Source: Cyanobacteria bacterium auto_48_18
Lineage (GTDB): Bacteria > Cyanobacteriota > Vampirovibrionia > Obscuribacterales > Obscuribacteraceae
Assembly (NCBI GenBank): GCA_036170915.1
Contig: JAVHQC010000035.1
Location: forward strand, 256,001 to 320,000
Length of the DNA stretch: 64,000 bases
Direction: 5' to 3'
The position numbers and the translations under genes were made by a program. Below are positions 29,666 through 41,866 of this stretch, piece after piece (position 1 is the stretch's first letter; each line of letters opens with the position of its first letter). The notes under the pieces were generated by a model that was not told where the DNA came from, made no database searches, and saw only the letters and a program-made list of their open reading frames with translations.

Positions 29666-30538
29666 TTAAAGGTTGTGTGGCGGCTGAGGTTGCTGCGGCT
29701 GTTGTGGCGGTTGCGGCGGATTCATTTTATTCTGCAAAGCATCTTTGAGCATTTCGTTCTGGCGCAAGAGCGCCTTCAAGTGTTCATTGGCTATAGCCAA
29801 CTCAGCCTGCAGCTCAGCTACAGTTTGCTCGTGCGAGACACCAGTCACAGGGTCACGTCCGGGCATCTTAGGCAGCAGCACATAACCCAATTGAACAGCC
29901 TTCAATGCCGCCGCAGTTCGCGTAGGCACTTTGAGCTTGGCCAGAATGCACTCAATATGTTTTTCTACTGTGCGCAGCTTCATGTCGAGCTCTTCGGCAA
30001 TTTCTTTGTTGCGCAAATCAAGACGAATCAGCACTTCAATCTCTCTATCGGTGAGATTGCAGTTAGGCATATTTGTAGTCGGGGCTTGCTTAACCAGTTG
30101 CGTAATCTTGGGATCGCAATAAGGCAAACCACGTGTAATTTGTTCGATAGCTTCAAAGAGTGTGCGCGGTCCTGAGCTCTTGAGGCAAAATCCGCGGGCG
30201 CCGGCGCGCATCAGTTGATTGTGATATTTAGTGGCATGGTAAGAATCGGTCAGTACCAGCACATTGGCATTAGGCAGTTCCATGCTGACTCTGCGGCATA
30301 CTTCCACGCCATTGAGAACGTCCAGATCAACATCGAGAATGACAAAATCTGGCCTTAATCTGCGAATCATTTCAGTGGCGGCCATACCATCGGCAGCCTC
30401 ACCGACAATCTCTACAACTTCAGAAACTACTCGTTTGAGACCAAAACGAATTAATTCGTGTCTCTCACAGAGCACTGTTCGAGGCCGAAAAATTGAGGGT
30501 CTTTGCGTTGAATCCAAGAGTGTCTCCCGTCTATCCAT
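29666..30538 (-). CDS. NarL/LuxR family response regulator with a C-terminal coiled-coil and Q/P tail
   Basis: Receiver domain (RPDFVILDVDL, GFCLKS) and LuxR HTH (LTDREIEVL...NKEIAEEL...RTVEKHIECILAKL); divergent from the TPR-rpoB-like operon. Confidence 0.9.
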   Translation of the reverse strand: MDRRETLLDSTQRPSIFRPRTVLCERHELIRFGLKRVVSEVVEIVGEAADGMAATEMIRRLRPDFVILDVDLDVLNGVEVCRRVSMELPNANVLVLTDSYHATKYHNQLMRAGARGFCLKSSGPRTLFEAIEQITRGLPYCDPKITQLVKQAPTTNMPNCNLTDREIEVLIRLDLRNKEIAEELDMKLRTVEKHIECILAKLKVPTRTAAALKAVQLGYVLLPKMPGRDPVTGVSHEQTVAELQAELAIANEHLKALLRQNEMLKDALQNKMNPPQPPQQPQQPQPPHNL

Positions 30539-31065
30539 CTGCCCTTTGAGAACTCCATGGCTTCGCCTATTGCAGCTCGGAATTATTGTAACAGCGTGGG
30601 CAGTCCTGTCACCATCAGGGCAGTAACTTCTTTATATACCCTATATTCTCTACGATCTAATCCTTTACTCATTTGAACGAACCCTGAGCCCCTGGGCCTT
30701 TGCGGGCGGATGGAGAAACTCACTCCACAACTATCAATGATGAAAAGGGGCATTATCAGACGCCACCAGCGATAACGCGCAAACACACCGCATATTCAGC
30801 ATATATCATCTGCAACATACTTCTGCCGGACGAGCAGAATTTTGTCTTCGCCAGCAAAATAATCTATATGGGCGCTCAAGAGATAAACTAGTAGTATCTT
30901 TCTGCTTCGCGCTAGCTAAAGCAGCTGTGTTTGGGGGAATCTTACGAGAAGCATGGGAAAAATCCCAGTAGCAGGCTATTCTTTAAATGGTTAAGCTGAC
31001 CTCATAATATTTATTCCAGGCACTGATAAATGGCCACAGACCGGCGTTCTTGAATTTTCAAAGAA

Positions 31066-33174
31066 GTGATGACAACTACAGGATTTAAAATCGAAAAAAA
31101 ATTTCGCGACCTGGTAATTACAACTGGCCTTGTATTTTCCATCGCCCCTATTGTCTCGCTGACAACAGCCGCCCCCGCCCAGGCCACCAAACTCAACGCC
31201 GCACCGCTTCCCCATCGTGGAGAAGCTAATTCTGACAACCAGAATAATTGGGGCAGGCCTACCAAAAACTTTTCACAGTCGCCCGAGCGCACAGCCTTGC
31301 CTCCATCTATGTGGGAGGGAAGGCGACCTGATTATCGCGATGAAGAAAAGCGTAAAAAACTGGAAGAAGCTGCCAATGCCGTCAAAGCAGCTGCAGAAGC
31401 GAAAAAAGCACAAGAAGCTGTCAGGCGTGCAGAACTTGACCGCATTAATGCCGGCAAGCAATATCAACAAACCGCCATCGATGCCAATAATCGAGGTGTG
31501 GCTCTTGGCCGTCAGGGTCGCATGAATGAAGCGATTGCGCAGCATGAGCTGGCTTGCAAATATGATCCCGGCAACAAGATGTTTCGCACTAACCTGACCA
31601 GCGCCCGCACCATTTATGGTCAGCAGCGCATGGCGCAAAAGGATTATACGGGAGCCGCTCACCTTTTTCGCAAAGCACTGACCGCCGCTCAAGACAATTC
31701 GCTGGCGGCAAAATTATTGAATGAATCAATTCAAAAAACCGGCCTTGATCCCACACTTTCTGATAATCGTGTGGGAATAGGCGATCAGTTAGCGGCATCA
31801 GGTGATCTTGATGGCGCCATGATTGAGTATCAGCAAGCCATGCAGCTTGACCCCAGCGCCCGAACCTACGTCAAAATGGGCGATATGATGTTGCGTTATG
31901 GCCAGGCACCAAATGCTTTAAGCTGGTATCGCAACGCTGTGGTTAAAGATACAAACTATGGCCCGGCTCACAGGCAGCTCGGCATGATGTATATGATGCA
32001 GAAAGATTATGCCTCCGCGGCAGCGTCTTTGCGAAAAGCGGTAATTCTTGATTCGAAAGATGCGGCAGCTGGTCAGGCTTTAATTGATATCTGGCGCAAA
32101 CAGGTCTCTATCAATCCTGAGCTGGCTGAAAATCACCTTGGCCTGGCTGGTGCCTTTCAGCTCACAGGCGATTTTCAATCGGCCGCCGGTGAATATTTGC
32201 AAGTTGAACAGCTTGACCCGGGCAACGCAAGACTGGCTCCAGGGCGAGAAAGTTTGCAGAGGGCAATGAAGCATACAACAGCCGAAAAACACCGAGCTGC
32301 TGCCGAAGTATTTATCAGTCAGGGTCTGGCCCGCGACGCTCTGGCTGAAATTAGTCAGGCTGTCACTGTCGAACCGCGCAATGCCCGCTATCAATTTTTA
32401 ATGGGCGAAGCATTAGAAAGCGGCGGAGATGTTCAAGGGGCATTGCGAGCCTATCACACTTCAGTTTTGATCGACCCTGAAAACAACCAGGAAGCAGCAG
32501 CAAGAATGCGCGATTTGCAATCAAAGATCAATGCTGGTGCCGGTTCTAACAATAGTAATGCTGGCGCCAACAACCCAGCTAATAAAAGAAGTGCTCGCAC
32601 TCTTTATGAAGGCGTGCCGCCTCAATCTAATAGTAATGCTAGTGGCGGTGGTGGTGGCGCAGCAATAAGAGAAGCCAGGCAAGAAACACCGTTTACCGGC
32701 AGCTTCCGCACTCACGACGAGTCCGGAAACCCTGTACAGATGACTAATCCAGGTGTAGGTGCCGGCGCAGGTCAGCGAACCGAAAACGCAGTCCCTCAAT
32801 CATCTCCACCACCACAAGCCCGTGCTGAGAGGCCGGCCCCTGCCAATGATAAACAGACTCGCGACAGCCAAACTACAGCTACGCTTAAAGCCTGCGATGA
32901 AATGGAAATGCGCCGAGATTTTCAGGGCGCTGCCAATTTATTGCGAGAAGCACTCTCCAATAATTTGCAAAATGCTGACATTCACCACCGCCTCGGTCTG
33001 AATTTACTCAGTTCAGGTCAACTTTCCGAGTCTGTCTCTGAGCTGCGCATTGCCAGCGCGCTTTCGCCCAGCAACAAAGTATTTGTGGCTGACCTGGCTA
33101 GAGCACTGAATATACACAAACGTTCTCTTTCATCTGATTCAGATCACGTGCAAGGAGCCAATCCCGCTCAATGA
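31066..33174 (+). CDS. Exported multi-TPR protein, 702 aa
   Basis: Signal-like N-terminus ending APAQA, many TPR repeats (ANNRGVAL, AHRQLGMM, NHLGLAGA, IHHRLGLN) and a low-complexity linker. Its stop overlaps the next start (ATGA). Confidence 0.88.
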   Translation: MMTTTGFKIEKKFRDLVITTGLVFSIAPIVSLTTAAPAQATKLNAAPLPHRGEANSDNQNNWGRPTKNFSQSPERTALPPSMWEGRRPDYRDEEKRKKLEEAANAVKAAAEAKKAQEAVRRAELDRINAGKQYQQTAIDANNRGVALGRQGRMNEAIAQHELACKYDPGNKMFRTNLTSARTIYGQQRMAQKDYTGAAHLFRKALTAAQDNSLAAKLLNESIQKTGLDPTLSDNRVGIGDQLAASGDLDGAMIEYQQAMQLDPSARTYVKMGDMMLRYGQAPNALSWYRNAVVKDTNYGPAHRQLGMMYMMQKDYASAAASLRKAVILDSKDAAAGQALIDIWRKQVSINPELAENHLGLAGAFQLTGDFQSAAGEYLQVEQLDPGNARLAPGRESLQRAMKHTTAEKHRAAAEVFISQGLARDALAEISQAVTVEPRNARYQFLMGEALESGGDVQGALRAYHTSVLIDPENNQEAAARMRDLQSKINAGAGSNNSNAGANNPANKRSARTLYEGVPPQSNSNASGGGGGAAIREARQETPFTGSFRTHDESGNPVQMTNPGVGAGAGQRTENAVPQSSPPPQARAERPAPANDKQTRDSQTTATLKACDEMEMRRDFQGAANLLREALSNNLQNADIHHRLGLNLLSSGQLSESVSELRIASALSPSNKVFVADLARALNIHKRSLSSDSDHVQGANPAQ

Positions 33175-36100
33175 GTTTTTATTTTCAGGCACCAGACTTA
33201 GCTGAATTTCCACGTCGCTCTTACAGGCGTTTCCTGGAAGAAACCATCGGCAATTTATTTTCCGAAATTTCGCCTGTAGCGAGTGAATATTCCGCTCGCT
33301 TCGAACTCACTTTCATTGGCCCAGACGGTAAAGTGCACTGGCGTTTTGAAGATTATGCGCCTGATTCGGGCTATCCGACGTCGCCTGAACAAGCTCGCAA
33401 ATCAAACATGACGCACTCTAAACGCATGATGATGGAAGTGTGGTTGCGCGATACCTTGACCGGCGAATTGCGCAAATCAACCGCTTACGTAACCGACGTA
33501 CCGGTGATTACAGACCGTGGTACTTTTGTTATTAACGGCTCTGAGCGCGTGGTGTTAGGTCAACTGGTGCGCGCCCCGGGCGTCTATTTCAGCCAGGGTG
33601 GTCAGACCAGCTACAAAGCGCTTTTGCTGGCAGAAATGGGTGCACCCATTGCTTTTGAATTAGAACTCGACGCTAGCGGTGGCAAAACCAGCCGGGCAAA
33701 ATGCCGCATCAAATTACCTAAAAGAAGTTGGGTAGCTGCCACCACAGTACTAGCGGCGATGGGCGTCGACGCCCAAGATTTGCAAAAACGCATCGGTAGT
33801 TTGCTCGAACGCAATCGCATCGACTTTAAACCATTAACTCAAACTGAAGCATTAGCCGTTGTTGGCCGCTCGTGGAAACCTGATGGTGGTGGTGGCGCAT
33901 CTGGTGGCGCTACTGCCCTGAAAGAATTGACTGACAGGCGCCGCTATTCCCTGGGCACTCTCGGTCGCAAACGTGTCAACGCCAAACTAGGTATTGAAGA
34001 ACTATCACAGCAACTGAGTGCCGACGACATTCTGGCAGCAGTGGAATATTTACTCGGCTTACCGCTGGACATGGGCCGCACCGATAATATCGACAGTTTA
34101 GAAAATCGCCACTTGCGTGGTGTAGGCGAAACTCTCACAAAGGCTGTGAGGCCAGCACTCGGCCAAATGACCCGCTCTATTCGCACGCGCCTTGAGATGA
34201 ATGAAGATGAAGAAATAGGCTCACCTAACGAGTTGCTCGATATTCGCCCCTTCTCAAATGCGCTCAATAAATATTTTGTCGGCAACCCTCTGGTACAGTA
34301 TCTCGACCAACAAAACCCGCTCTCAGAGCTATCTCACAGGCGCAGAATCACGTCATTCGGACCAGGTGGTATCGACCCCAATGCAGCACCTGTAGAAATG
34401 CGCGACGTGCACCCGTCTCAAATTGGTCGCGTTTGCCTGGTAGAGTCTCCCGAAGGTAAGAATTGCGGCATGGTCTCTTATATGGCCACTTACTGCCGTA
34501 TTGACGACGACGGTTTCATGACTGTGCCCTATAGAAAAGTATTCAATGGCCTGGTATCAGATGAGGTGCAATTCCTCACCCCAGCTGATGACAAACGCTT
34601 TACTCTGGCACCACCTGATACCAAGGTGGTTGAAAACAAAATTTCAGGTCCGATGGTGGCGGCCAGGCGGGGCGAGAACTTCATTGAAGTAACACCCGAA
34701 GAAGTAGACATGATCGGTATTGCCCCGCAAGGCTTCATATCGGTAGGCTCCGGGCTGATTCCTTTCTTAGAACACGACGACGCCAACCGCGCCCTCATGG
34801 GTGGTGGCATGATGCGCCAAACTCTGCCTCTGATTCGGCCAGAGCGGCCGCGAGTAGGCACAGGTATGGAGCGTATCGTTGCTCGCTCCAGCGGACATTC
34901 CATTATTGCCAGACGAGCAGGAACGGTGACGAAAGTAACCGGCCGAGAAATTGTGGTGGCACAGTCGTCCGGCGAATCACGTTCTTATAATTTGACTAGA
35001 TTTGATCGCACCAATCAGAACACCATTTTAGACCAGAGACCGTCGGTGCAGGTAGGACAGCAGGTAGAAACAGGTCAAATTATTGCTGACGGACCAGCCA
35101 TTGACTCTGGCGAACTGGCTCTGGGACGCAATCTATTGATTGCTTTCATGCCCTGGTATGGCTATAACTTTGAAGACGCTATTGTGGTGCGTGAGGGCCT
35201 GGTAAAAGATCAAAAACTAACCCACATTGAAATTGAGAAACATTCTTGCGGCGTGCACCAAACTTTGCGTGGCCCAGAAATTCTTACCCCTGAACTGCCT
35301 AACGTCACAGCTAAAGATCTTGAGCACCTGGATGACCGCGGCATCGCGAAAATCGGCTGTTATGTGAATCCTGGCGATATTCTTGTGGCAAAATTATCAC
35401 CTAAAGAGGCTAAAGCTCTTTCAGCTGAAGAAGAATTGCTGCAAGCAATTTTCGGCAAAGTGGCTGAAGAAATGGGTGATACCAGTTTGCGTGTGCCGCA
35501 CGGCTCAGGTGGCCGAGTGATTGACGTGCGCATTTTCACACCAGAGACCACCCCTGAACTGAAGGCCGGTATCATCTGCGATATCGAAGTCTTAATCGCC
35601 CGCATGTGCCCTGTTGAAGTGGGCGACAAATTAGCTGGACGCCACGGCAATAAAGGTATTGTTTCAATTATCGTGCCCGATTGCGACATGCCCTTCATGC
35701 CCGACGGTACGCCTGTAGATATCTGTCTAAACGCCCTCGGTGTTCCCAGCCGTATGAATGTAGGCCAGGTTTTCGATACTCAACTTGGATATTACGCCAG
35801 CATTCTCAACCGCTACTACCGCATTCACCAGTTTGACGAATCGATTGCACCAGATGCATCATTCAGACTGGTTACAGACGCTCTTAAAGAAGTGCGCAAA
35901 GTGCCAGGCTATGAATGGATGGGTGAAGACGGCAAAGTAGTCTTGACTGACGGCCGCACTGGCGAGAGATTTGACCGCCCTGTGCTGGTAGGTCGGCAGT
36001 ATATGCTCAAATTAAATCAGCTGGTTCTGCACAAAATTAATGCTCGCTCTGGTTTGGGTGGCCCGTATGCCGCAGTCACACAGCAACCGGTGGGCGGAAA

Positions 36101-37004
36101 AGCCAATCATGGCGGCCAGCGTATGGGAGAAATGGAAGTCTGGGGCATTCAAGCCTATGGCGCGGCCAATATTCTGCACGAAATGATGACCATTAAGGCT
36201 GACGACATTCAAGGCAGGCACCAGTCATATGCTGACATGGTGCAAGGCAACCCACTTACGCCAGGTGGTCGCACAGCCGCTTTTGACGGTCTCTGCTGCG
36301 AAATTCGCGGCCTTGGCATGGAGATGACCCTGGGCAAGGTAATTGACTCCTTCGAACCCATTGAAGACCGCTCCTGCGCAGTACCAAATGGGACTTCTAC
36401 GAAAACTCTGGAAGAGAAATATCAGGTCTCATCAGTACAGCAAATGGAGAATAACGAAGGCCAGAAAGTGCTGGAGATCCCTGCTGGGGACTTCGTTCCG
36501 GTCTCCAAGCCACCCGCCTTACCGATCATAACTTCGATGACTAGCGGAAAACACGGTGGGAAACCACGTATTGAAATGTCCCAGGAACCGTTGTTTGATG
36601 ACATAGACGAAAGCGCGCAGGCGCCAGGTGATTCTTCCGCCACCGACGATTTCATCGAAAGGCTATTAAGAGAAGAAGAAGAGGAAGAGCGAAAAGCAAA
36701 GGAAACCAAAGACGGTCCGGCAAACTATCTGGCAGAAGTTCTCACCAGGGAATTAGGTGCGCAATCACCACTCAAAACTTTCCCCTCACTGAGCGAACTG
36801 TCCACACTAGCCCAACAGCTGGTGCTTGTTTCTCAAAAAGATAGCCACCCGCAAACTAATCTAGACGACCAAATCAGCGAACTTAGCGAATTCACAGAGC
36901 TAAGCGGCTACTTCAAAAAAGCAGCACAAAAAACCACAAGTTCAACTTCAACCTTAAATACAACTGAATCGCAAGCGATTCACCAAGAAGACGACTCAAG
37001 TTAA
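33171..37004 (+). CDS. rpoB: Divergent DNA-directed RNA polymerase subunit beta paralog with an acidic C-terminal extension of about 220 aa
   Basis: Colinear RpoB motifs: GTFVINGSERV, DQQNPLSELSHRRR, RDVHPS, PFLEHDDANRALMG, GELALG, MPWYGYNFEDAI, GDKLAGRHGNKG, GVPSRMNVGQ and GGQRMGEMEVW. Many normally invariant positions are substituted and no rpoC is adjacent, so the symbol marks homology only, not necessarily the housekeeping copy. Confidence 0.93.
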   Translation: MSFYFQAPDLAEFPRRSYRRFLEETIGNLFSEISPVASEYSARFELTFIGPDGKVHWRFEDYAPDSGYPTSPEQARKSNMTHSKRMMMEVWLRDTLTGELRKSTAYVTDVPVITDRGTFVINGSERVVLGQLVRAPGVYFSQGGQTSYKALLLAEMGAPIAFELELDASGGKTSRAKCRIKLPKRSWVAATTVLAAMGVDAQDLQKRIGSLLERNRIDFKPLTQTEALAVVGRSWKPDGGGGASGGATALKELTDRRRYSLGTLGRKRVNAKLGIEELSQQLSADDILAAVEYLLGLPLDMGRTDNIDSLENRHLRGVGETLTKAVRPALGQMTRSIRTRLEMNEDEEIGSPNELLDIRPFSNALNKYFVGNPLVQYLDQQNPLSELSHRRRITSFGPGGIDPNAAPVEMRDVHPSQIGRVCLVESPEGKNCGMVSYMATYCRIDDDGFMTVPYRKVFNGLVSDEVQFLTPADDKRFTLAPPDTKVVENKISGPMVAARRGENFIEVTPEEVDMIGIAPQGFISVGSGLIPFLEHDDANRALMGGGMMRQTLPLIRPERPRVGTGMERIVARSSGHSIIARRAGTVTKVTGREIVVAQSSGESRSYNLTRFDRTNQNTILDQRPSVQVGQQVETGQIIADGPAIDSGELALGRNLLIAFMPWYGYNFEDAIVVREGLVKDQKLTHIEIEKHSCGVHQTLRGPEILTPELPNVTAKDLEHLDDRGIAKIGCYVNPGDILVAKLSPKEAKALSAEEELLQAIFGKVAEEMGDTSLRVPHGSGGRVIDVRIFTPETTPELKAGIICDIEVLIARMCPVEVGDKLAGRHGNKGIVSIIVPDCDMPFMPDGTPVDICLNALGVPSRMNVGQVFDTQLGYYASILNRYYRIHQFDESIAPDASFRLVTDALKEVRKVPGYEWMGEDGKVVLTDGRTGERFDRPVLVGRQYMLKLNQLVLHKINARSGLGGPYAAVTQQPVGGKANHGGQRMGEMEVWGIQAYGAANILHEMMTIKADDIQGRHQSYADMVQGNPLTPGGRTAAFDGLCCEIRGLGMEMTLGKVIDSFEPIEDRSCAVPNGTSTKTLEEKYQVSSVQQMENNEGQKVLEIPAGDFVPVSKPPALPIITSMTSGKHGGKPRIEMSQEPLFDDIDESAQAPGDSSATDDFIERLLREEEEEERKAKETKDGPANYLAEVLTRELGAQSPLKTFPSLSELSTLAQQLVLVSQKDSHPQTNLDDQISELSEFTELSGYFKKAAQKTTSSTSTLNTTESQAIHQEDDSS

Positions 37005-37014
37005 ATAGAGCAGG

Positions 37015-37971
37015 ATGAAAACCATGACAGGCGCCGGGAAAAGTCAGCTAAACAGCAAAAGCAGTTTCTGCTTGACCAACCTTCTAAGCGCCTTTTTGTT
37101 TGCTGCAGTGATTGCCCTCACTTCATCAGTCAGTGCTCAAGCCCAGTTTGGTGGCGCTCAACCACCACCCGTAGGTGACGGCAGCACTCCTGCCCCGGTC
37201 ACCCCTGGCGATACTTCTGGTGGTGCCGCCGCTCCGTCGAACAGCGCTGATGCAGGCCCCGGCACAAACAATGCCATCGGCACAGGCCGCGACCGCACTG
37301 TGGTTCGCATATTCAAGCAATCGGCAGGTCGTGGCGCACGCATGGTGCAAACTTTGCGCCCTGATACTCTTTCTGATGAAGCTAGAGCCAGAATCGACGG
37401 CATTCTCGGTATCAACATGTTGTCCGGCGAACAAGCCATCGACATCACCGCTACCGATGCCCAGATTGAACAAATTCAAGAAGCGCTGGCAGCTTATCCA
37501 CAGACCAGTAACAATGCCGGCCGCAAGACTATTACTGGTGACAATCCAGCTGCTGGTTATCCAAGGCCAGGCCGCAACAGCATTTATCGCTTCGATAATC
37601 AGTTGCCTACAGTGGCCACCTTCTCTCGTTATTTAGTTATTTTAGGCGTAGTCTCGGCCACAGTATTTATGGCTCTAGCAGCCTATTCTGTGGTGATGGG
37701 TAACCCTTATGGTGGTGCCAGGGTAATTGGCGCAGCATCTGGTTTGCTCTTCTTAATGGCCGCTTACACAATCTGGAAAATTGTCACCATGAATACTTTC
37801 GGTGCCAATTCACCAGACACTGCTAGAGCTCAAAATCGAACTCAGCAAGGTCTTGTACAAGACGCCTTCATGACCAGGCCGCTCACGCCGGTGACACCTA
37901 ACGGTGGTGTCAATGGTGGTGCTGCCAGAGGCGGAGTGCCGGTGCAACCATTCGGCAACGCAGGCAACTAG
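37015..37971 (+). CDS. Exported/membrane protein with a C-terminal VirB2/TrbC (T4SS pilin)-like two-helix domain
   Basis: Signal-like segment ending AQA, low-complexity linker, then YLVILGVVSATVFMALAAYSVVMGNPYGGARVIGAASGLLFLMAAYTIWKIV. Confidence 0.55.
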   Translation: MKTMTGAGKSQLNSKSSFCLTNLLSAFLFAAVIALTSSVSAQAQFGGAQPPPVGDGSTPAPVTPGDTSGGAAAPSNSADAGPGTNNAIGTGRDRTVVRIFKQSAGRGARMVQTLRPDTLSDEARARIDGILGINMLSGEQAIDITATDAQIEQIQEALAAYPQTSNNAGRKTITGDNPAAGYPRPGRNSIYRFDNQLPTVATFSRYLVILGVVSATVFMALAAYSVVMGNPYGGARVIGAASGLLFLMAAYTIWKIVTMNTFGANSPDTARAQNRTQQGLVQDAFMTRPLTPVTPNGGVNGGAARGGVPVQPFGNAGN

Positions 37972-38007: not shown

Positions 38008-38715
38008 GTGAAAAGAGTGGACACCACAAAACTGTTGAAGAGATTGAATATCTCTCTGATAGTGGCCGCCCTAGCCGGCGTGCAAGTGGCAAGCGCTCAA
38101 CCTAAAAATGAATTTTTCGGCGGCAATTCCAGCACTCCTGCACAAAAAGGTTATTCCAATTTTCAGGGTCCTGCGCCAAAAGGTCCGGCCAACGGTGTCA
38201 CCGCCAAAGGTGCCGGAGCGATGGATTCTGACGCGAGCCCAGAGCTAACCTGGTTTGAAAAATTCGATGGCATTAGTTATCACGGCCGACCTACCGACTC
38301 TGAAAGAATCATTTTGAACATGCCCTTTAACCAGGAGGCAGAGCGTGTACAAAGATGGACAGCAGCTGCAAGTGCTGTTGCTAAAAGATATCGCGAAACT
38401 TCGAAAGCGCTGAAGACTCTACACGCACCTCGCGGAAGAGCTGATTTGGATGATCTCTGTTATGCACGAATTAACTGGTTTAACGATGCAGCTTTAGTTT
38501 ACGAGGAGATGATTCGGCCAAGAAATCCTGCTCAAACCATTGAAGAATTGAACGACCAGTTAAGACAGGTGAAAGACCAAGCTGGTGCACTAAAAAATCA
38601 AAATGTGACAATCTTGGCCTCTGACCGAAAATTGAGGCGATTTTATCGAGTTCATGCACCAAAAGAAACCGACGCCCTTACCGGATACATCAACGGCCAA
38701 TACAAAAAGAATTAG
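38008..38715 (+). CDS. Exported helical hypothetical protein
   Basis: GTG start with AAGGA RBS, signal peptide ending ASA, helical C-terminal domain. Confidence 0.75.
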   Translation: MKRVDTTKLLKRLNISLIVAALAGVQVASAQPKNEFFGGNSSTPAQKGYSNFQGPAPKGPANGVTAKGAGAMDSDASPELTWFEKFDGISYHGRPTDSERIILNMPFNQEAERVQRWTAAASAVAKRYRETSKALKTLHAPRGRADLDDLCYARINWFNDAALVYEEMIRPRNPAQTIEELNDQLRQVKDQAGALKNQNVTILASDRKLRRFYRVHAPKETDALTGYINGQYKKN

Positions 38716-38798: not shown

Positions 38799-39560
38799 AT
38801 GGCTATTCAGTTAAATGACAGAGACCATCTTATTTTCAAACTAATTGATGAGCATGAGGTCTTACTTGAGAAACATATTTCGTGGTTTATTGCTGGTGAA
38901 GAAAAACCAGTCTTGATTAGAGATCGGCTGCGCAAGCTCTTCTATCTTGATTATTTGCTTTGTCATCGTCATGGCAGCAAATTGCCATGGTGGACAACTC
39001 CCACCAAGCCACTGGTTTACATGCTCTCTCCTTTAACGAGAACCATCGCTGGTGCTCCTGAAGCAGACGACACCATGCTCGATAATGAGTTCCAACGGCA
39101 CCACCTCGAGGTCGCCAATCTGCGCATGCTTTACCTGGTTGCACAAAAAGACGGCCAAATAAGTGCATTTCAGTGGACAACTTGTAAGCAAGCCAAAAAC
39201 GCTGAAACAGGACTTGACGCCAAAGTCGAATTTCGCAATGGCACATCGACAACCAAAGTCGGTCTGGTCAACAATCTCGCCCTTGACCAAGCAAGTATCA
39301 CCAAACTGACTCAATCTCTCGCCACTGAAGAAATCGATTCATTGCTGCTTATCTCTCGTGATGACCTGGCGCAAAAAGCATTGCAACAACTGGTTGCTCA
39401 AGCTGGCGGAGAACTGGCCAAACGGGCATTGTTCTCGACTCACCAGGAGTTATATAGAGACGGCATTGTCGCTACCCGCTGGCAATCAGTAGCCGGCGCT
39501 GCAACGCTTAAGCCAGAAGTTGCATATATAGGAACGATGGCTCAGCCGATTGCCGTATAG
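38799..39560 (+). CDS. Replication-relaxation (Replic_Relax)-like wHTH plus degenerate nuclease-fold protein
   Basis: QLNDRDHLIFKLIDEH...IRDRLRKLFYLDYL...PLVYML...HHLEVANL...GLDAKV follows the Replic_Relax pattern, but the expected acidic ExD motif is missing. Confidence 0.55.
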   Translation: MAIQLNDRDHLIFKLIDEHEVLLEKHISWFIAGEEKPVLIRDRLRKLFYLDYLLCHRHGSKLPWWTTPTKPLVYMLSPLTRTIAGAPEADDTMLDNEFQRHHLEVANLRMLYLVAQKDGQISAFQWTTCKQAKNAETGLDAKVEFRNGTSTTKVGLVNNLALDQASITKLTQSLATEEIDSLLLISRDDLAQKALQQLVAQAGGELAKRALFSTHQELYRDGIVATRWQSVAGAATLKPEVAYIGTMAQPIAV

Positions 39561-39636: not shown

Positions 39637-39723
39637 GCTGTGGGAGAAGGCTAGCATGGGGATGCTGGCCTTCGTGCTTAGGCCTTAGCCTGGCGGCTTC
39701 CAGGCTGAGTGCTTATTGACAGC
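39637..39723 (+). other. Twin GC-rich hairpins in an intergenic leader (candidate structured RNA)
   Basis: GAAGGCTAGCAT/ATGCTGGCCTTC and CTTAGCCTGG/CCAGGCTGAG stems, each with one G-U pair and each ending at or followed by GTGCTTA. Confidence 0.55.
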
Positions 39724-39802: not shown

Positions 39803-41866
39803 ATGACTAAAAATCAGAGAAATCTGATCAAACGCAGGCAACGAGGCAATATGCTCGTCTTTGCCACTGCCATAACGGTCTTTCTTGTGGCCGTTCTAGC
39901 CTTCTTCAGTCTCGGTTATGTGAGACTGCTGGGCAGCAATAGCGAACAACGAAACGCGATTGAAGCGGCGTCGCTAGCAGCTGCTCGAGATTTGAGCATG
40001 ATCGCAGTAGATACCGATGAGTATGGTTGGGTCTCAGTATCCGACGCGGCACCAACAGGCTCGGTAACCACAGCCAATGATGCGTACAACGTGCCAGTCA
40101 GAGGCATTAACAGCATCATCGGTACAATTCGCCTCGACTTAATTATTGCCAATGAGCTGGCCGATGCCAATCTCAAACAAATTATCAAAGCTGATTTAGT
40201 CAAGGCTAAAGCAGCCCAAGCCAAATTAGCTACTGAACTGAAAAAAGCAATTGTGCCAGGCTATATAGCCAAAGACATTAACAATCAAAATATCAACGTA
40301 TACAAAGATGCGGAAGATGCTTATACCGCTAATCAAATTCGCATGACCGGCTCGTCTAACTATGTCAAAAATTCCCTCAAGCTGTCTCTGGGCAGTATCG
40401 CCAATGGTGGTGGCGTCACCAACACTCCGCTGCCCCGCCCCATTTCCAAAGCCAGCGTTCCAAGCGGCGGATCGCAGAATAATTTTTACCGCTCATACTT
40501 CAATCAGACTTTCGACGGAGAAGATTTTGTCTTCGCCGGCATTGGTGATGCCATCAAACTGATTGATGTAAAAAACTGGACCCCCTCTGTAGCCTCACTG
40601 CCATATCAGATGCAGACTGTTGTTAAAGCTGAGGCCGACCAACAAATGAATAATGGTCAAAGTGGACAGACTTATACCATTCATGCCATCGCATGCGCCC
40701 AGCCTGCCAACGTGGCTGATCCAAAACCAGCACCTGGTGCACTAAGCTTCAGCTTCCCAGACGGCATACCACCTGAAATTACAAAGCCCATAGATATGTT
40801 TACCGATGCTCAACTGAACAGTGGTAATAACTGCAATGTGCAAACTTCCAAAAATGGTGACTATCCAATTGGCAAACCCACCACACAAATCGTCGATATT
40901 ACCTGGCCATATCCTTCTCTAGCTGAGAGCACTGGTAATGTCTTCCGTCTAGCCCTGTTCGACTGGTGGAAAAGAGCCGGGACTAAACTGAACATTGATT
41001 CGGCAGTAACGATGATGACCGACCCCAAATACAATTTCAACACTCCGGTGCCGGACAAAATCGATTGGAAAACTCCTGCCAAACTCGGCGACAAAACCAT
41101 CTACAACTTGGGTCCTATCCCCAACGGCAACATCCATATTTATCGAATTGATCCTGCCAGTGGTCAAATCAGCTATCAAGACAAATCACTAGCTCCAGTG
41201 CAATATAGTGTGGCCGGCAACCAACAACTGTATTCAGAGAATATTGACGCTATCACAAAAAGCAAAGTTGGTACTCAGACTGTAGGACCATTCGAGTTTC
41301 CTAATACCGGCTATCTCGTTGATACGGTTTATTTGAAGCCAGTCTATGACGTTTATATACGTGACCAGGTACATCAACCTGGCAAAGCGCTGGGAGGTGA
41401 CCACGCCGGAGAGCCGATGGATTATCCGCTAGTTTCGCAAGCCACCACCGGCAGAGATCTAGGTGGTGCCGGATTTGGTGCAGCTAAGCCACCACCCATT
41501 GACCAAAGGGCCAAGGGTTTGCCTCCAGCAATCACTAACCAGTCAGACTTCGCTGAAACCGCTGGTTTCCCTATGAATTCGAGCTTTTACAATAACTACT
41601 CAGCTGGCCCTGGTGTGAAAAATATGCGGCCTACTTATCAGAAAAACGGTATGGCTGTTGATGTTCGCTTTAGAAGGCAGGTTGATACAGGCACGTTCAA
41701 AGATAGTCTCGGTTTTAGCATAGGCTATGTAGGCGAAAAATATCCGCCTGGCACACCGGCGATGACTGGCATTCCGTATGTGCCACCACCCCCACCTACA
41801 CCACCTGTTCCAGATCCGGCAGCGCCAGCTGATCCAGCAGCGCCACCGGCAACACCGACACCATAA
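39803..41866 (+). CDS. TadG-like (Tad domain) large pseudopilin/adhesin, 687 aa, with a Pro-rich tail
   Basis: Basic leader RRQRG followed by a hydrophobic helix, then QRNAIEAASLAAARDL, matching the Tad/TadG QxAxDAAALAAA motif. Confidence 0.75.
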   Translation: MTKNQRNLIKRRQRGNMLVFATAITVFLVAVLAFFSLGYVRLLGSNSEQRNAIEAASLAAARDLSMIAVDTDEYGWVSVSDAAPTGSVTTANDAYNVPVRGINSIIGTIRLDLIIANELADANLKQIIKADLVKAKAAQAKLATELKKAIVPGYIAKDINNQNINVYKDAEDAYTANQIRMTGSSNYVKNSLKLSLGSIANGGGVTNTPLPRPISKASVPSGGSQNNFYRSYFNQTFDGEDFVFAGIGDAIKLIDVKNWTPSVASLPYQMQTVVKAEADQQMNNGQSGQTYTIHAIACAQPANVADPKPAPGALSFSFPDGIPPEITKPIDMFTDAQLNSGNNCNVQTSKNGDYPIGKPTTQIVDITWPYPSLAESTGNVFRLALFDWWKRAGTKLNIDSAVTMMTDPKYNFNTPVPDKIDWKTPAKLGDKTIYNLGPIPNGNIHIYRIDPASGQISYQDKSLAPVQYSVAGNQQLYSENIDAITKSKVGTQTVGPFEFPNTGYLVDTVYLKPVYDVYIRDQVHQPGKALGGDHAGEPMDYPLVSQATTGRDLGGAGFGAAKPPPIDQRAKGLPPAITNQSDFAETAGFPMNSSFYNNYSAGPGVKNMRPTYQKNGMAVDVRFRRQVDTGTFKDSLGFSIGYVGEKYPPGTPAMTGIPYVPPPPPTPPVPDPAAPADPAAPPATPTP

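Follow-up and report, generated by a model that had tools for sequence, protein, structure and literature searches.

A second RNA polymerase beta subunit gene in Obscuribacterales, retained under constraint and apparently remodelled around its catalytic residues

The genome of Cyanobacteria bacterium auto_48_18 (Obscuribacterales) encodes two RNA polymerase beta subunits. One is specified by an intact second rpoB gene, here named rpoB2 (product RpoB2), which corresponds to an open reading frame (ORF) of 1277 amino acids at 33171-37004 on the + strand of the window, i.e. the whole stretch of 64,000 nucleotides that was analysed (contig JAVHQC010000035.1, positions 256,001 to 320,000). Judged from sequence, RpoB2 is a real, ancient and family-defining paralog whose whole channel and partner-facing surfaces appear remodelled around an untouched catalytic set. 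The single other rpoB of this genome is 43% identical to it over 1059 columns, with RpoB2 differing at 57% of sites, and occurs in a normal rpoB-rpoC1-rpoC2 operon on contig C16, outside of which rpoB2 is located. None of the marks of a housekeeping rpoB (rpoBC operon, single copy, presence throughout the phylum) was found for RpoB2. One rpoC1, one rpoC2 and one rpoA are present in this genome, where a second copy of each was sought and not found, and a single rpoC1 and a single rpoC2 occur in 5/5 near-complete relatives. With one beta-prime set per genome, catalysis by RpoB2 would thus need the host beta-prime. The host, which is non-photosynthetic, encodes 12 sigma70 factors, six of them group-1/2-like (contigs C22, C35, C36, C16, C30 and C6).

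The product passes the NCBIfam rpoB cut-offs (TIGR02013 score of 1013 for a cut-off of 801) and has Pfam Rpb2 domains 2, 3, 45, 6 and 7 above cut-off, domain 1 being weak; annotation pipelines label it plainly as 'RNA polymerase subunit beta'. Its predicted structure (predicted local distance difference test, pLDDT, of 79.7; predicted template modelling score, pTM, of 0.75) has the RpoB fold, with low confidence for amino acids 953-1009 and the tail, and the top Foldseek matches of this model are all RpoB, solved chains included. The protein is composed of an RpoB core (amino acids 1-1054), a conserved extension (ca. 1055-1155) and a variable acidic tail. The extension (36333..36635, + strand; about 100 amino acids, of low model confidence) is confined to the RpoB2 family, with 57 matches that are all RpoB-bearing or short pieces. 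The tail is long, acidic and partly disordered; beyond the extension (36636-37004 in the window) it ranges from ca. 30 to 500 amino acids across orthologs and often ends with FPS-x2-EL-x2-LA. A few ortholog frames (L082, L084, L020 and L021) are short or interrupted, frameshift and assembly error not being told apart. GC content at third codon positions (GC3) is 0.50 versus 0.47 for the genome, and the codon-usage score, which is weak evidence, lies at the 87-90th percentile versus the 99th for canonical rpoB.

In this family of uncultured, non-photosynthetic cyanobacterial relatives, RpoB2 was detected in 77 of the 82 genomes that are at least 80% complete, versus 0/318 elsewhere in the class; family genomes are kin and such counts are not independent draws. 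A paralog-diagnostic fragment was found in 91/104 family genomes and in 1/3 genomes of the sister family, where its GC matches that of the host (counts from best E-values, cut at 1e-20). The canonical rpoB fragment was itself missed in 10/104 family genomes, so that the RpoB2 gaps look like assembly gaps. The sole family genome at least 85% complete in which these queries detected neither rpoB2 nor the gene at 38799 (see below) is G053, a possible real loss, while the G020 assembly (8% contamination) contains two rpoB2 copies (L135 and L136), each with a TPR (tetratricopeptide repeat) gene and a regulator, and maybe two populations. No second rpoB copy was found in the 29 phylum genomes checked. 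Loci that carry RpoB2 and a name are mostly labelled Obscuribacterales or Melainabacteria and, upon clustering at 50% identity, just two clusters resemble RpoB2, the next matches reaching at most 47%. The viral contigs, phages and plasmids searched contained no close relative of RpoB2.

A first-pass annotation of this DNA had argued that the changes in RpoB2 are not random decay, and this was borne out: variable sites are changed at a rate of 82% and the most conserved ones at 12%, the ratio of nonsynonymous to synonymous rates (dN/dS) is like that of canonical rpoB, no ortholog deviates at the catalytic ligands, and the signature changes, fixed in the orthologs, do not occur in canonical RpoB of the phylum. 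Against ten relatives, dN/dS is 0.014-0.049 for the RpoB2 core (dS measurable in 6/10) and 0.019-0.046 for canonical rpoB (dS measurable in 8/10); dN is ca. 1.9-fold above that of the canonical gene and, over the ten related genomes, rises with canonical divergence (rho 0.94). In trees, RpoB2 is placed with or next to Cyanobacteriota rpoB on a very long stem (1.1-3.2 changes per site depending on the model) with a short crown, and its history reads as a burst of change followed by constraint again. When plastid-like long branches were included RpoB2 grouped with them, and without them it fell at the base of the phylum clade. In approximately unbiased (AU) tests, a sister relationship to Obscuribacterales rpoB (p=0.39) and a placement beside the outgroup (p=0.13) were both retained, so that the trees are compatible with more than one origin of RpoB2; counts of shared residues were flat (6, 5 and 2).

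Residues were compared in 94 frames, reduced to 79 distinct ones (54 paralogs, two of them without the N-terminus, and 25 canonical), with a background of 148 RpoBs, each of which represents a cluster at 50% identity. The motifs named by the first-pass annotation are all present in the ORF where it had placed them, on the + strand, with starts at 33630 (AEMGAP), 34083 (DNIDSLENRH), 34779 (DANRALM), 34803 (GGMMRQ), 35163 (YNFED), 35622 (GDKLAGRHGNKG), 35730 (NALG), 35745 (PSRMN), 36009 (KLNQLVLHKINARS) and 36045 (RSGLGGPYAAVTQQPVGG), and its E. coli numbering, which is used below, agrees with the actual E. coli protein, also for the change of H1237 to Q (codon 36018) and for a 2-residue insertion. 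The catalytic ligands that it had listed as kept, R678, E813, D814, K1065, K1073 and R1106, are each present in 54/54 orthologs, and N684G, Q686M, H1237Q, H1244N and the switch-3 insertion are shared by 54/54 and W183P by 52/52. The exception among its listed changes is NPLG to NALG, with P1100A in 20/54 orthologs and P kept in 33. G684, Q1237, N1244 and P183 occur in no background RpoB (0/144 for P183); as a correction to its list, H447S and G449E are common elsewhere (S at 447 in 19/148, E at 449 in 8/148). The invariant H1237 and near-invariant N684 and H1244 of RpoB are thus Q, G and N in 54/54 paralogs and in 0/147-148 of the background, in which the switch-3 segment has its canonical length in 146/147.

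Along the protein (all on the + strand), the W183P region AEMGAP (33630..33647) has lost the residue that stacks on the non-template +1 base, a role described in passages of PMC4499132. The segment DNIDSLENRH of the core recognition element (CRE) pocket (34083..34112) keeps D446 and R451 and carries H447S, G449E and R452H. The rifampicin pocket, fork loop 2 and D2 loop (34284..34475) carry S509N, Q510P, S512V, S531T, L533F, R540P, R542A, Y555I, P560L, T563S and I572V, none of which had been listed by the first-pass annotation, and keep Q513, D516, H526, R529, E565, G566, N568 and G570; R540P and R542A occur in 52/53 orthologs, H526 is kept in 53/53, and P567K and a change at V146 of the rifampicin pocket were also found. 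In the link region (34779..34820), R678, M681, M685, R687 and Q688 are kept next to N684G and Q686M, and N677 of DANR is kept in 74% of orthologs. E813 and D814 (35163..35177) are followed by a flap tip (35412..35480) that keeps its hydrophobic patch (L901, L902 and F906) with an acidic charge shift (K900E, R903Q, E908K, K909V, R911E), and by a stretch (35622..35759) with K1065, K1073, D1084 and R1106 kept and P1100A polymorphic. D1084 and G1215, which we take to be alpha-binding residues, are both kept. The segment at 36009..36143 carries H1237Q, D1240L, D1241H, H1244N, the 2-residue switch-3 insertion, S1252A, L1253A, L1259V and Q1264N and keeps K1242, R1246, Q1268, R1269, M1273 and E1274, and the clamp anchor (36273..36290) changes from PES to TAA (P1320T, E1321A, S1322A), with V1325G in addition; gate loop and clamp anchor are both rewritten. 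Fixed in RpoB2 are W183P, H447S, G449E, R452H, Q510P, S512V, Y555I, P560L, T563S, N684G, Q686M, H1237Q, D1240L, D1241H, H1244N and the insertion, and invariant in all paralogs that cover the site are Q688, R687, E565, G566, D446, R151, R451, Q513, D516, H526, R529, K1242, Q1268 and R1269.

At the 174 sites conserved in at least 90% of the background, the paralog consensus keeps 154 and changes 20 (16 fixed); the canonical copy of this genome differs at 5, and the background has a median of 2.9% and a maximum of 20/174. Five representatives (P0146, P0139, P0145, P0044 and P0104) have 15-20 near-invariant-site changes in a set that differs from that of RpoB2. At the 475 phylum-invariant sites, RpoB2 is the same and invariant at 260, constant but different at 121 and variable at 94. 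The further claim that changes target nucleic-acid contacts stood with one baseline and not with the other, the lists of nucleic-acid-, sigma-, beta-prime- and alpha-facing sites being background lists and the contact list not taken from coordinates. With the deep baseline, 9/27 conserved contacts are changed, for a background maximum of 8 among 148 (Fisher p=0.02-0.03), and 39/250 non-contact sites, with 3/148 background RpoBs as high; with the phylum baseline, 20/42 contacts versus 189/498 other sites are changed (p=0.25). The enrichment at nucleic-acid contacts thus appears modest.

Studied residues offer a view on whether RpoB2 could be active. PMC3994528 lists, in the part consulted, twelve residues of beta for the i and i+1 sites, of which RpoB2 keeps 10 and has lost N684 and H1237; the same part states, citing Mustaev 1991, that substitution of six such residues abolishes function. 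The residues R529, G566 and G570, the least mutable in an E. coli scan (excerpts of PMC10550828), are kept. In passages of PMC9254596, E. coli H447P, T563P and H1244Q are active, with a shorter open-complex life and lower rrnB P1 activity and with elongation complexes not destabilised; H1244Q is rpoB-star-35 in an excerpt of PMC7544221. W183A shortens open-complex life five-fold and leaves termination unchanged (PMC4499132, in part), and E. coli switch-3 mutants bind scaffolds at 15-35% of wild type, weakened and not dead, in the portion of PMC3505966 consulted. At position 1237, three of the five viral beta-like subunits checked have K (Salmonella phage Arash and Vibrio phage D69) or Q (RPB2 of the giant virus Mollyvirus Mo1-1), the latter carrying both G684 and Q1237.

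Gene order is fixed among 51 operon loci, some of them truncated at contig ends: TPR gene, rpoB2, 37015, 38008 and 38799 (50, 51, 46, 46 and 46 loci, respectively), which in the window are all on the + strand. The TPR protein (31066..33174) has a signal-peptide-like N-terminus, as judged by eye, and its stop overlaps the rpoB2 start (ATGA), with a ribosome-binding site conserved in most orthologs. Downstream, the Melainabacteria-specific protein at 37015..37971 displays a signal-peptide-like start, two hydrophobic helices and a weak TrbC/VirB2 pilin lead that is below the lead threshold (atlas score of at most 0.79), and the helical protein at 38008..38715 has a signal-peptide-like start and no Pfam or NCBIfam family. 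The last gene (38799..39560) encodes a cytoplasmic protein with a nearly invariant N-terminal part of 110 amino acids and a Replic_Relax-like (PF13814) lead; its distribution matches that of rpoB2 (76/77 family genomes, 0/223 others) and its single-sequence fold model (pLDDT of 41.7) is unusable. A terminator-like hairpin follows at 39684..39709 (+ strand; consensus match only), and comparison with Rfam gave no match. A NarL/LuxR response regulator is encoded divergently (29666..30538, - strand; mostly 83-100% identical across the family, 41/51 loci). The upstream element (30933..30997, + strand), conserved in a comparison of 37 ortholog regions, comprises two GGGA half-sites, a TGGGA-N5-CCCA palindrome and a sigma70-like promoter (TAGCAG-17 bp-TAAGCT).

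Scanning the genome with the upstream motif yielded 30 matches versus ca. 54 in shuffles, so that we propose no regulon apart from a single site that reproduces the whole layout. In that site, half-sites, palindrome, -35, 17 bp and -10 precede an 893-amino-acid ORF without Pfam match (L132:13700-13800; G000:C20 at ca. 148794, minus strand); weaker sites lie before genes at C24:20374, C33:173973 and C34:99595. The window also encodes, at 39803-41866, a 687-amino-acid protein whose N-terminus looks pseudopilin-like by eye and which has four paralogs in the genome; its gene is near rpoB2 in 26/51 loci, on either side. At L133:7086-11138, five small exported-looking proline-rich ORFs have no Pfam match and two of them share an N-terminal motif with the 37015 protein.

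We favour the reading, to which we give about an even chance, that RpoB2 is a regulated alternative beta that would pair with the only beta-prime to form an active, stringent-like enzyme with a weaker hold on promoters and other sigma or promoter preferences. The rpoB2 operon would be induced, probably by the divergent NarL-type regulator, and RpoB2 would replace canonical beta in the only core of the cell (alpha2, RpoC1, RpoC2 and omega), giving a catalytically active isoform with an intact nucleotide-addition centre. The grip on the non-template strand, early hybrid and sigma may be loosened or remodelled by W183P, the gate loop, fork loop 2, Q510P, H1237Q, H1244N, switch 3 and the flap-tip charge; open complexes would be short-lived, and rRNA-type promoters would be disfavoured and another sigma/promoter set favoured. 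Such a hard-wired 'stringent-like' polymerase would serve a programme specific to the family and perhaps linked to the cell-surface proteins of the operon. A wider proposal, which we regard as doubtful, is that Obscuribacterales build two functionally distinct core RNA polymerases from one beta-prime, a housekeeping enzyme and one with the regulated, anciently diverged beta isoform. The latter would have its own sigma or promoter preference and its own accessory factor, the candidates being the winged-helix-like protein of matching distribution and a partner that binds the unique tail.

Several points weigh against an active isoform. E. coli H1237A reportedly retains catalysis and is blocked in promoter escape, and H1237 is H in 147/147 bacterial-type RpoBs. 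Listed sigma-facing sites are changed at 16/29 versus 193/511 elsewhere, which is not significant (p=0.08), and changes also affect 25/80 conserved beta-prime-facing and 5/14 alpha-facing sites, clamp anchor included. The residue H1237 contacts the gamma-phosphate of the initiating nucleoside triphosphate, according to a passage of PMC3994528. The E. coli alleles are other residues tested singly, whereas RpoB2 combines ca. 120 constant-but-different sites, and the viral precedent is a single sequence. Three of the four operon partners look exported by eye, which a role in transcription does not explain, and we infer expression, assembly, activity, promoter and sigma preference and inducing signal of RpoB2 alike.

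In an alternative that we consider unlikely but worth weighing, RpoB2 assembles and cannot escape or elongate stably, producing abortive or short RNAs such as primers or acting as a dominant-negative beta that soaks up beta-prime and thereby silences transcription, e.g. in dormancy. It would fit the H1237A phenotype, the orientation of H1237Q, N684G, R540P, Q510P and H1244N, each of which points to the hybrid or to the initial nucleotides of the RNA, and the resemblance of the co-distributed 38799 protein to a replication-relaxation protein; the weak scaffold binding of E. coli switch-3 mutants (PMC3505966, in part) points the same way. A pure sponge, however, would have no need for six ligands, Q688, R687, E565, N568 and template contacts (K1242, Q1268, R1269, M1273 and E1274) that are invariant in 53-54 orthologs, and K or Q at 1237 is accepted in three of the five viral beta-like subunits. 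The exported-looking neighbours could instead suggest that RpoB2 was recruited away from the transcription of the cell itself, as a scaffold or, alongside the exported and pilin-like operon products, for delivery into a host or prey cell: rpoB2 is translationally coupled to the TPR gene, weakly pilin-like and exported-looking genes follow it (46-50/51 loci) and its tail is long, acidic and partly disordered. This is improbable, since RpoB2 has no signal peptide, its conserved positions still match the RpoB profile one by one (95% invariant where conservation is highest) and the pilin match of the 37015 protein is under the lead threshold.

Changes in several drug pockets could also designate RpoB2 as a resistance subunit against RNA polymerase antibiotics, like Nocardia RpoB2, with changes at N684, a GE23077-resistance site, and at V146, S512, S531, L533 and I572 of the rifampicin pocket. 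P560L, F545, L571, E1279 and S1322 are presumably resistance sites for CBR703, streptolydigin and myxopyronin. We find this reading very unlikely, since drug pockets overlap functional sites and such overlap is expected, the main rifampicin residues Q513, D516 and H526 are kept, known resistance paralogs differ by few residues and RpoB2 by 57% of sites, and universal retention, a unique tail and an invariable operon shared with unrelated exported proteins are atypical for a resistance gene. A simple rifampicin-resistance duplicate (near-identical, H526N-type) was rejected on the 43% identity and the conservation of H526. That RpoB2 is a duplicate in decay, comes from a mis-binned contig or belongs to a phage or plasmid is hardly credible: the very long stem, 2/54 short ortholog frames and some interrupted tails would agree with it, but dN/dS is ca. 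0.02, the gene is present in 91/104 family genomes with host-like GC3 and no close relative was found in the viral contigs, phages and plasmids searched. Selection and distribution rule out a pseudogene or contamination, and a phage or viral two-barrel polymerase was discarded given that neither a beta-prime-like partner of its own nor, among the viral sequences searched, a close relative was found, and given a tree position at the Cyanobacteriota rpoB clade.

Textbooks give bacteria a single core RNA polymerase, the exceptions known to us being near-identical duplicates, and an ancient family-wide beta paralog of 43% identity, constrained like the essential copy, breaks this one-core rule. 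One subunit swapped in an otherwise identical enzyme is a clean experiment, and RpoB2 provides a natural test of presumed invariant residues (H1237, N684 and H1244). Under a plain beta name, RpoB2 can mislead rpoB phylogenies and counts of single-copy markers in the group. If Obscuribacterales do run two core polymerases, the swapping of a core subunit would regulate transcription globally at a level higher than sigma switching and would parallel, in bacteria, the specialisation of Pol I-V.

In the literature searched, which included few subscription papers, no description of the Obscuribacterales RpoB2 paralog was found, and 12 of 32 passages of an RpoB survey that includes Vampirovibrionia (10.1101/2020.02.28.969766) do not mention it. 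Canonical cyanobacterial RpoB (PDB 8syi_C and 8gzg_C) has the same fold and domain order (template modelling score, TM-score, of 0.82-0.85 to the target), provides the best sequence matches and has the catalytic ligands in common with RpoB2, which differs by its location outside the rpoBC operon, fixed changes at near-invariant sites, the switch-3 insertion and the unique tail. Eukaryotic Pol I, Pol III and plant Pol IV/V (NRPD2) have paralogous second subunits in which catalytic ligands are kept and hybrid contacts altered. These specialised subunits and viral RPB2 have their own largest subunit, whereas none was found for RpoB2, so that a variant polymerase would arise by beta swap alone. 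Second rpoB genes are already known in actinomycetes, with ca. eleven differing residues (PMC5431353, in part). In the passages of that source, Nonomuraea rpoB(R) and Nocardia farcinica rpoB2 likewise occur as a second beta beside a canonical one with a shared beta-prime, and the mutant-type beta was proposed to act as a stringent polymerase that redirects transcription; these duplicates differ by five substitutions and a six-residue deletion, with H526N, whereas RpoB2, an ancient gene found across the family, retains H526 and departs at 57% of sites. Finally, the E. coli rpo-star stringent alleles H447P, T563P and H1244Q (PMC9254596) and W183A (PMC4499132) affect the same positions and, in the parts of these sources considered, yield active enzymes with unstable open complexes; they are single laboratory alleles with other residues, whereas the changes in RpoB2 are natural, combined and fixed.

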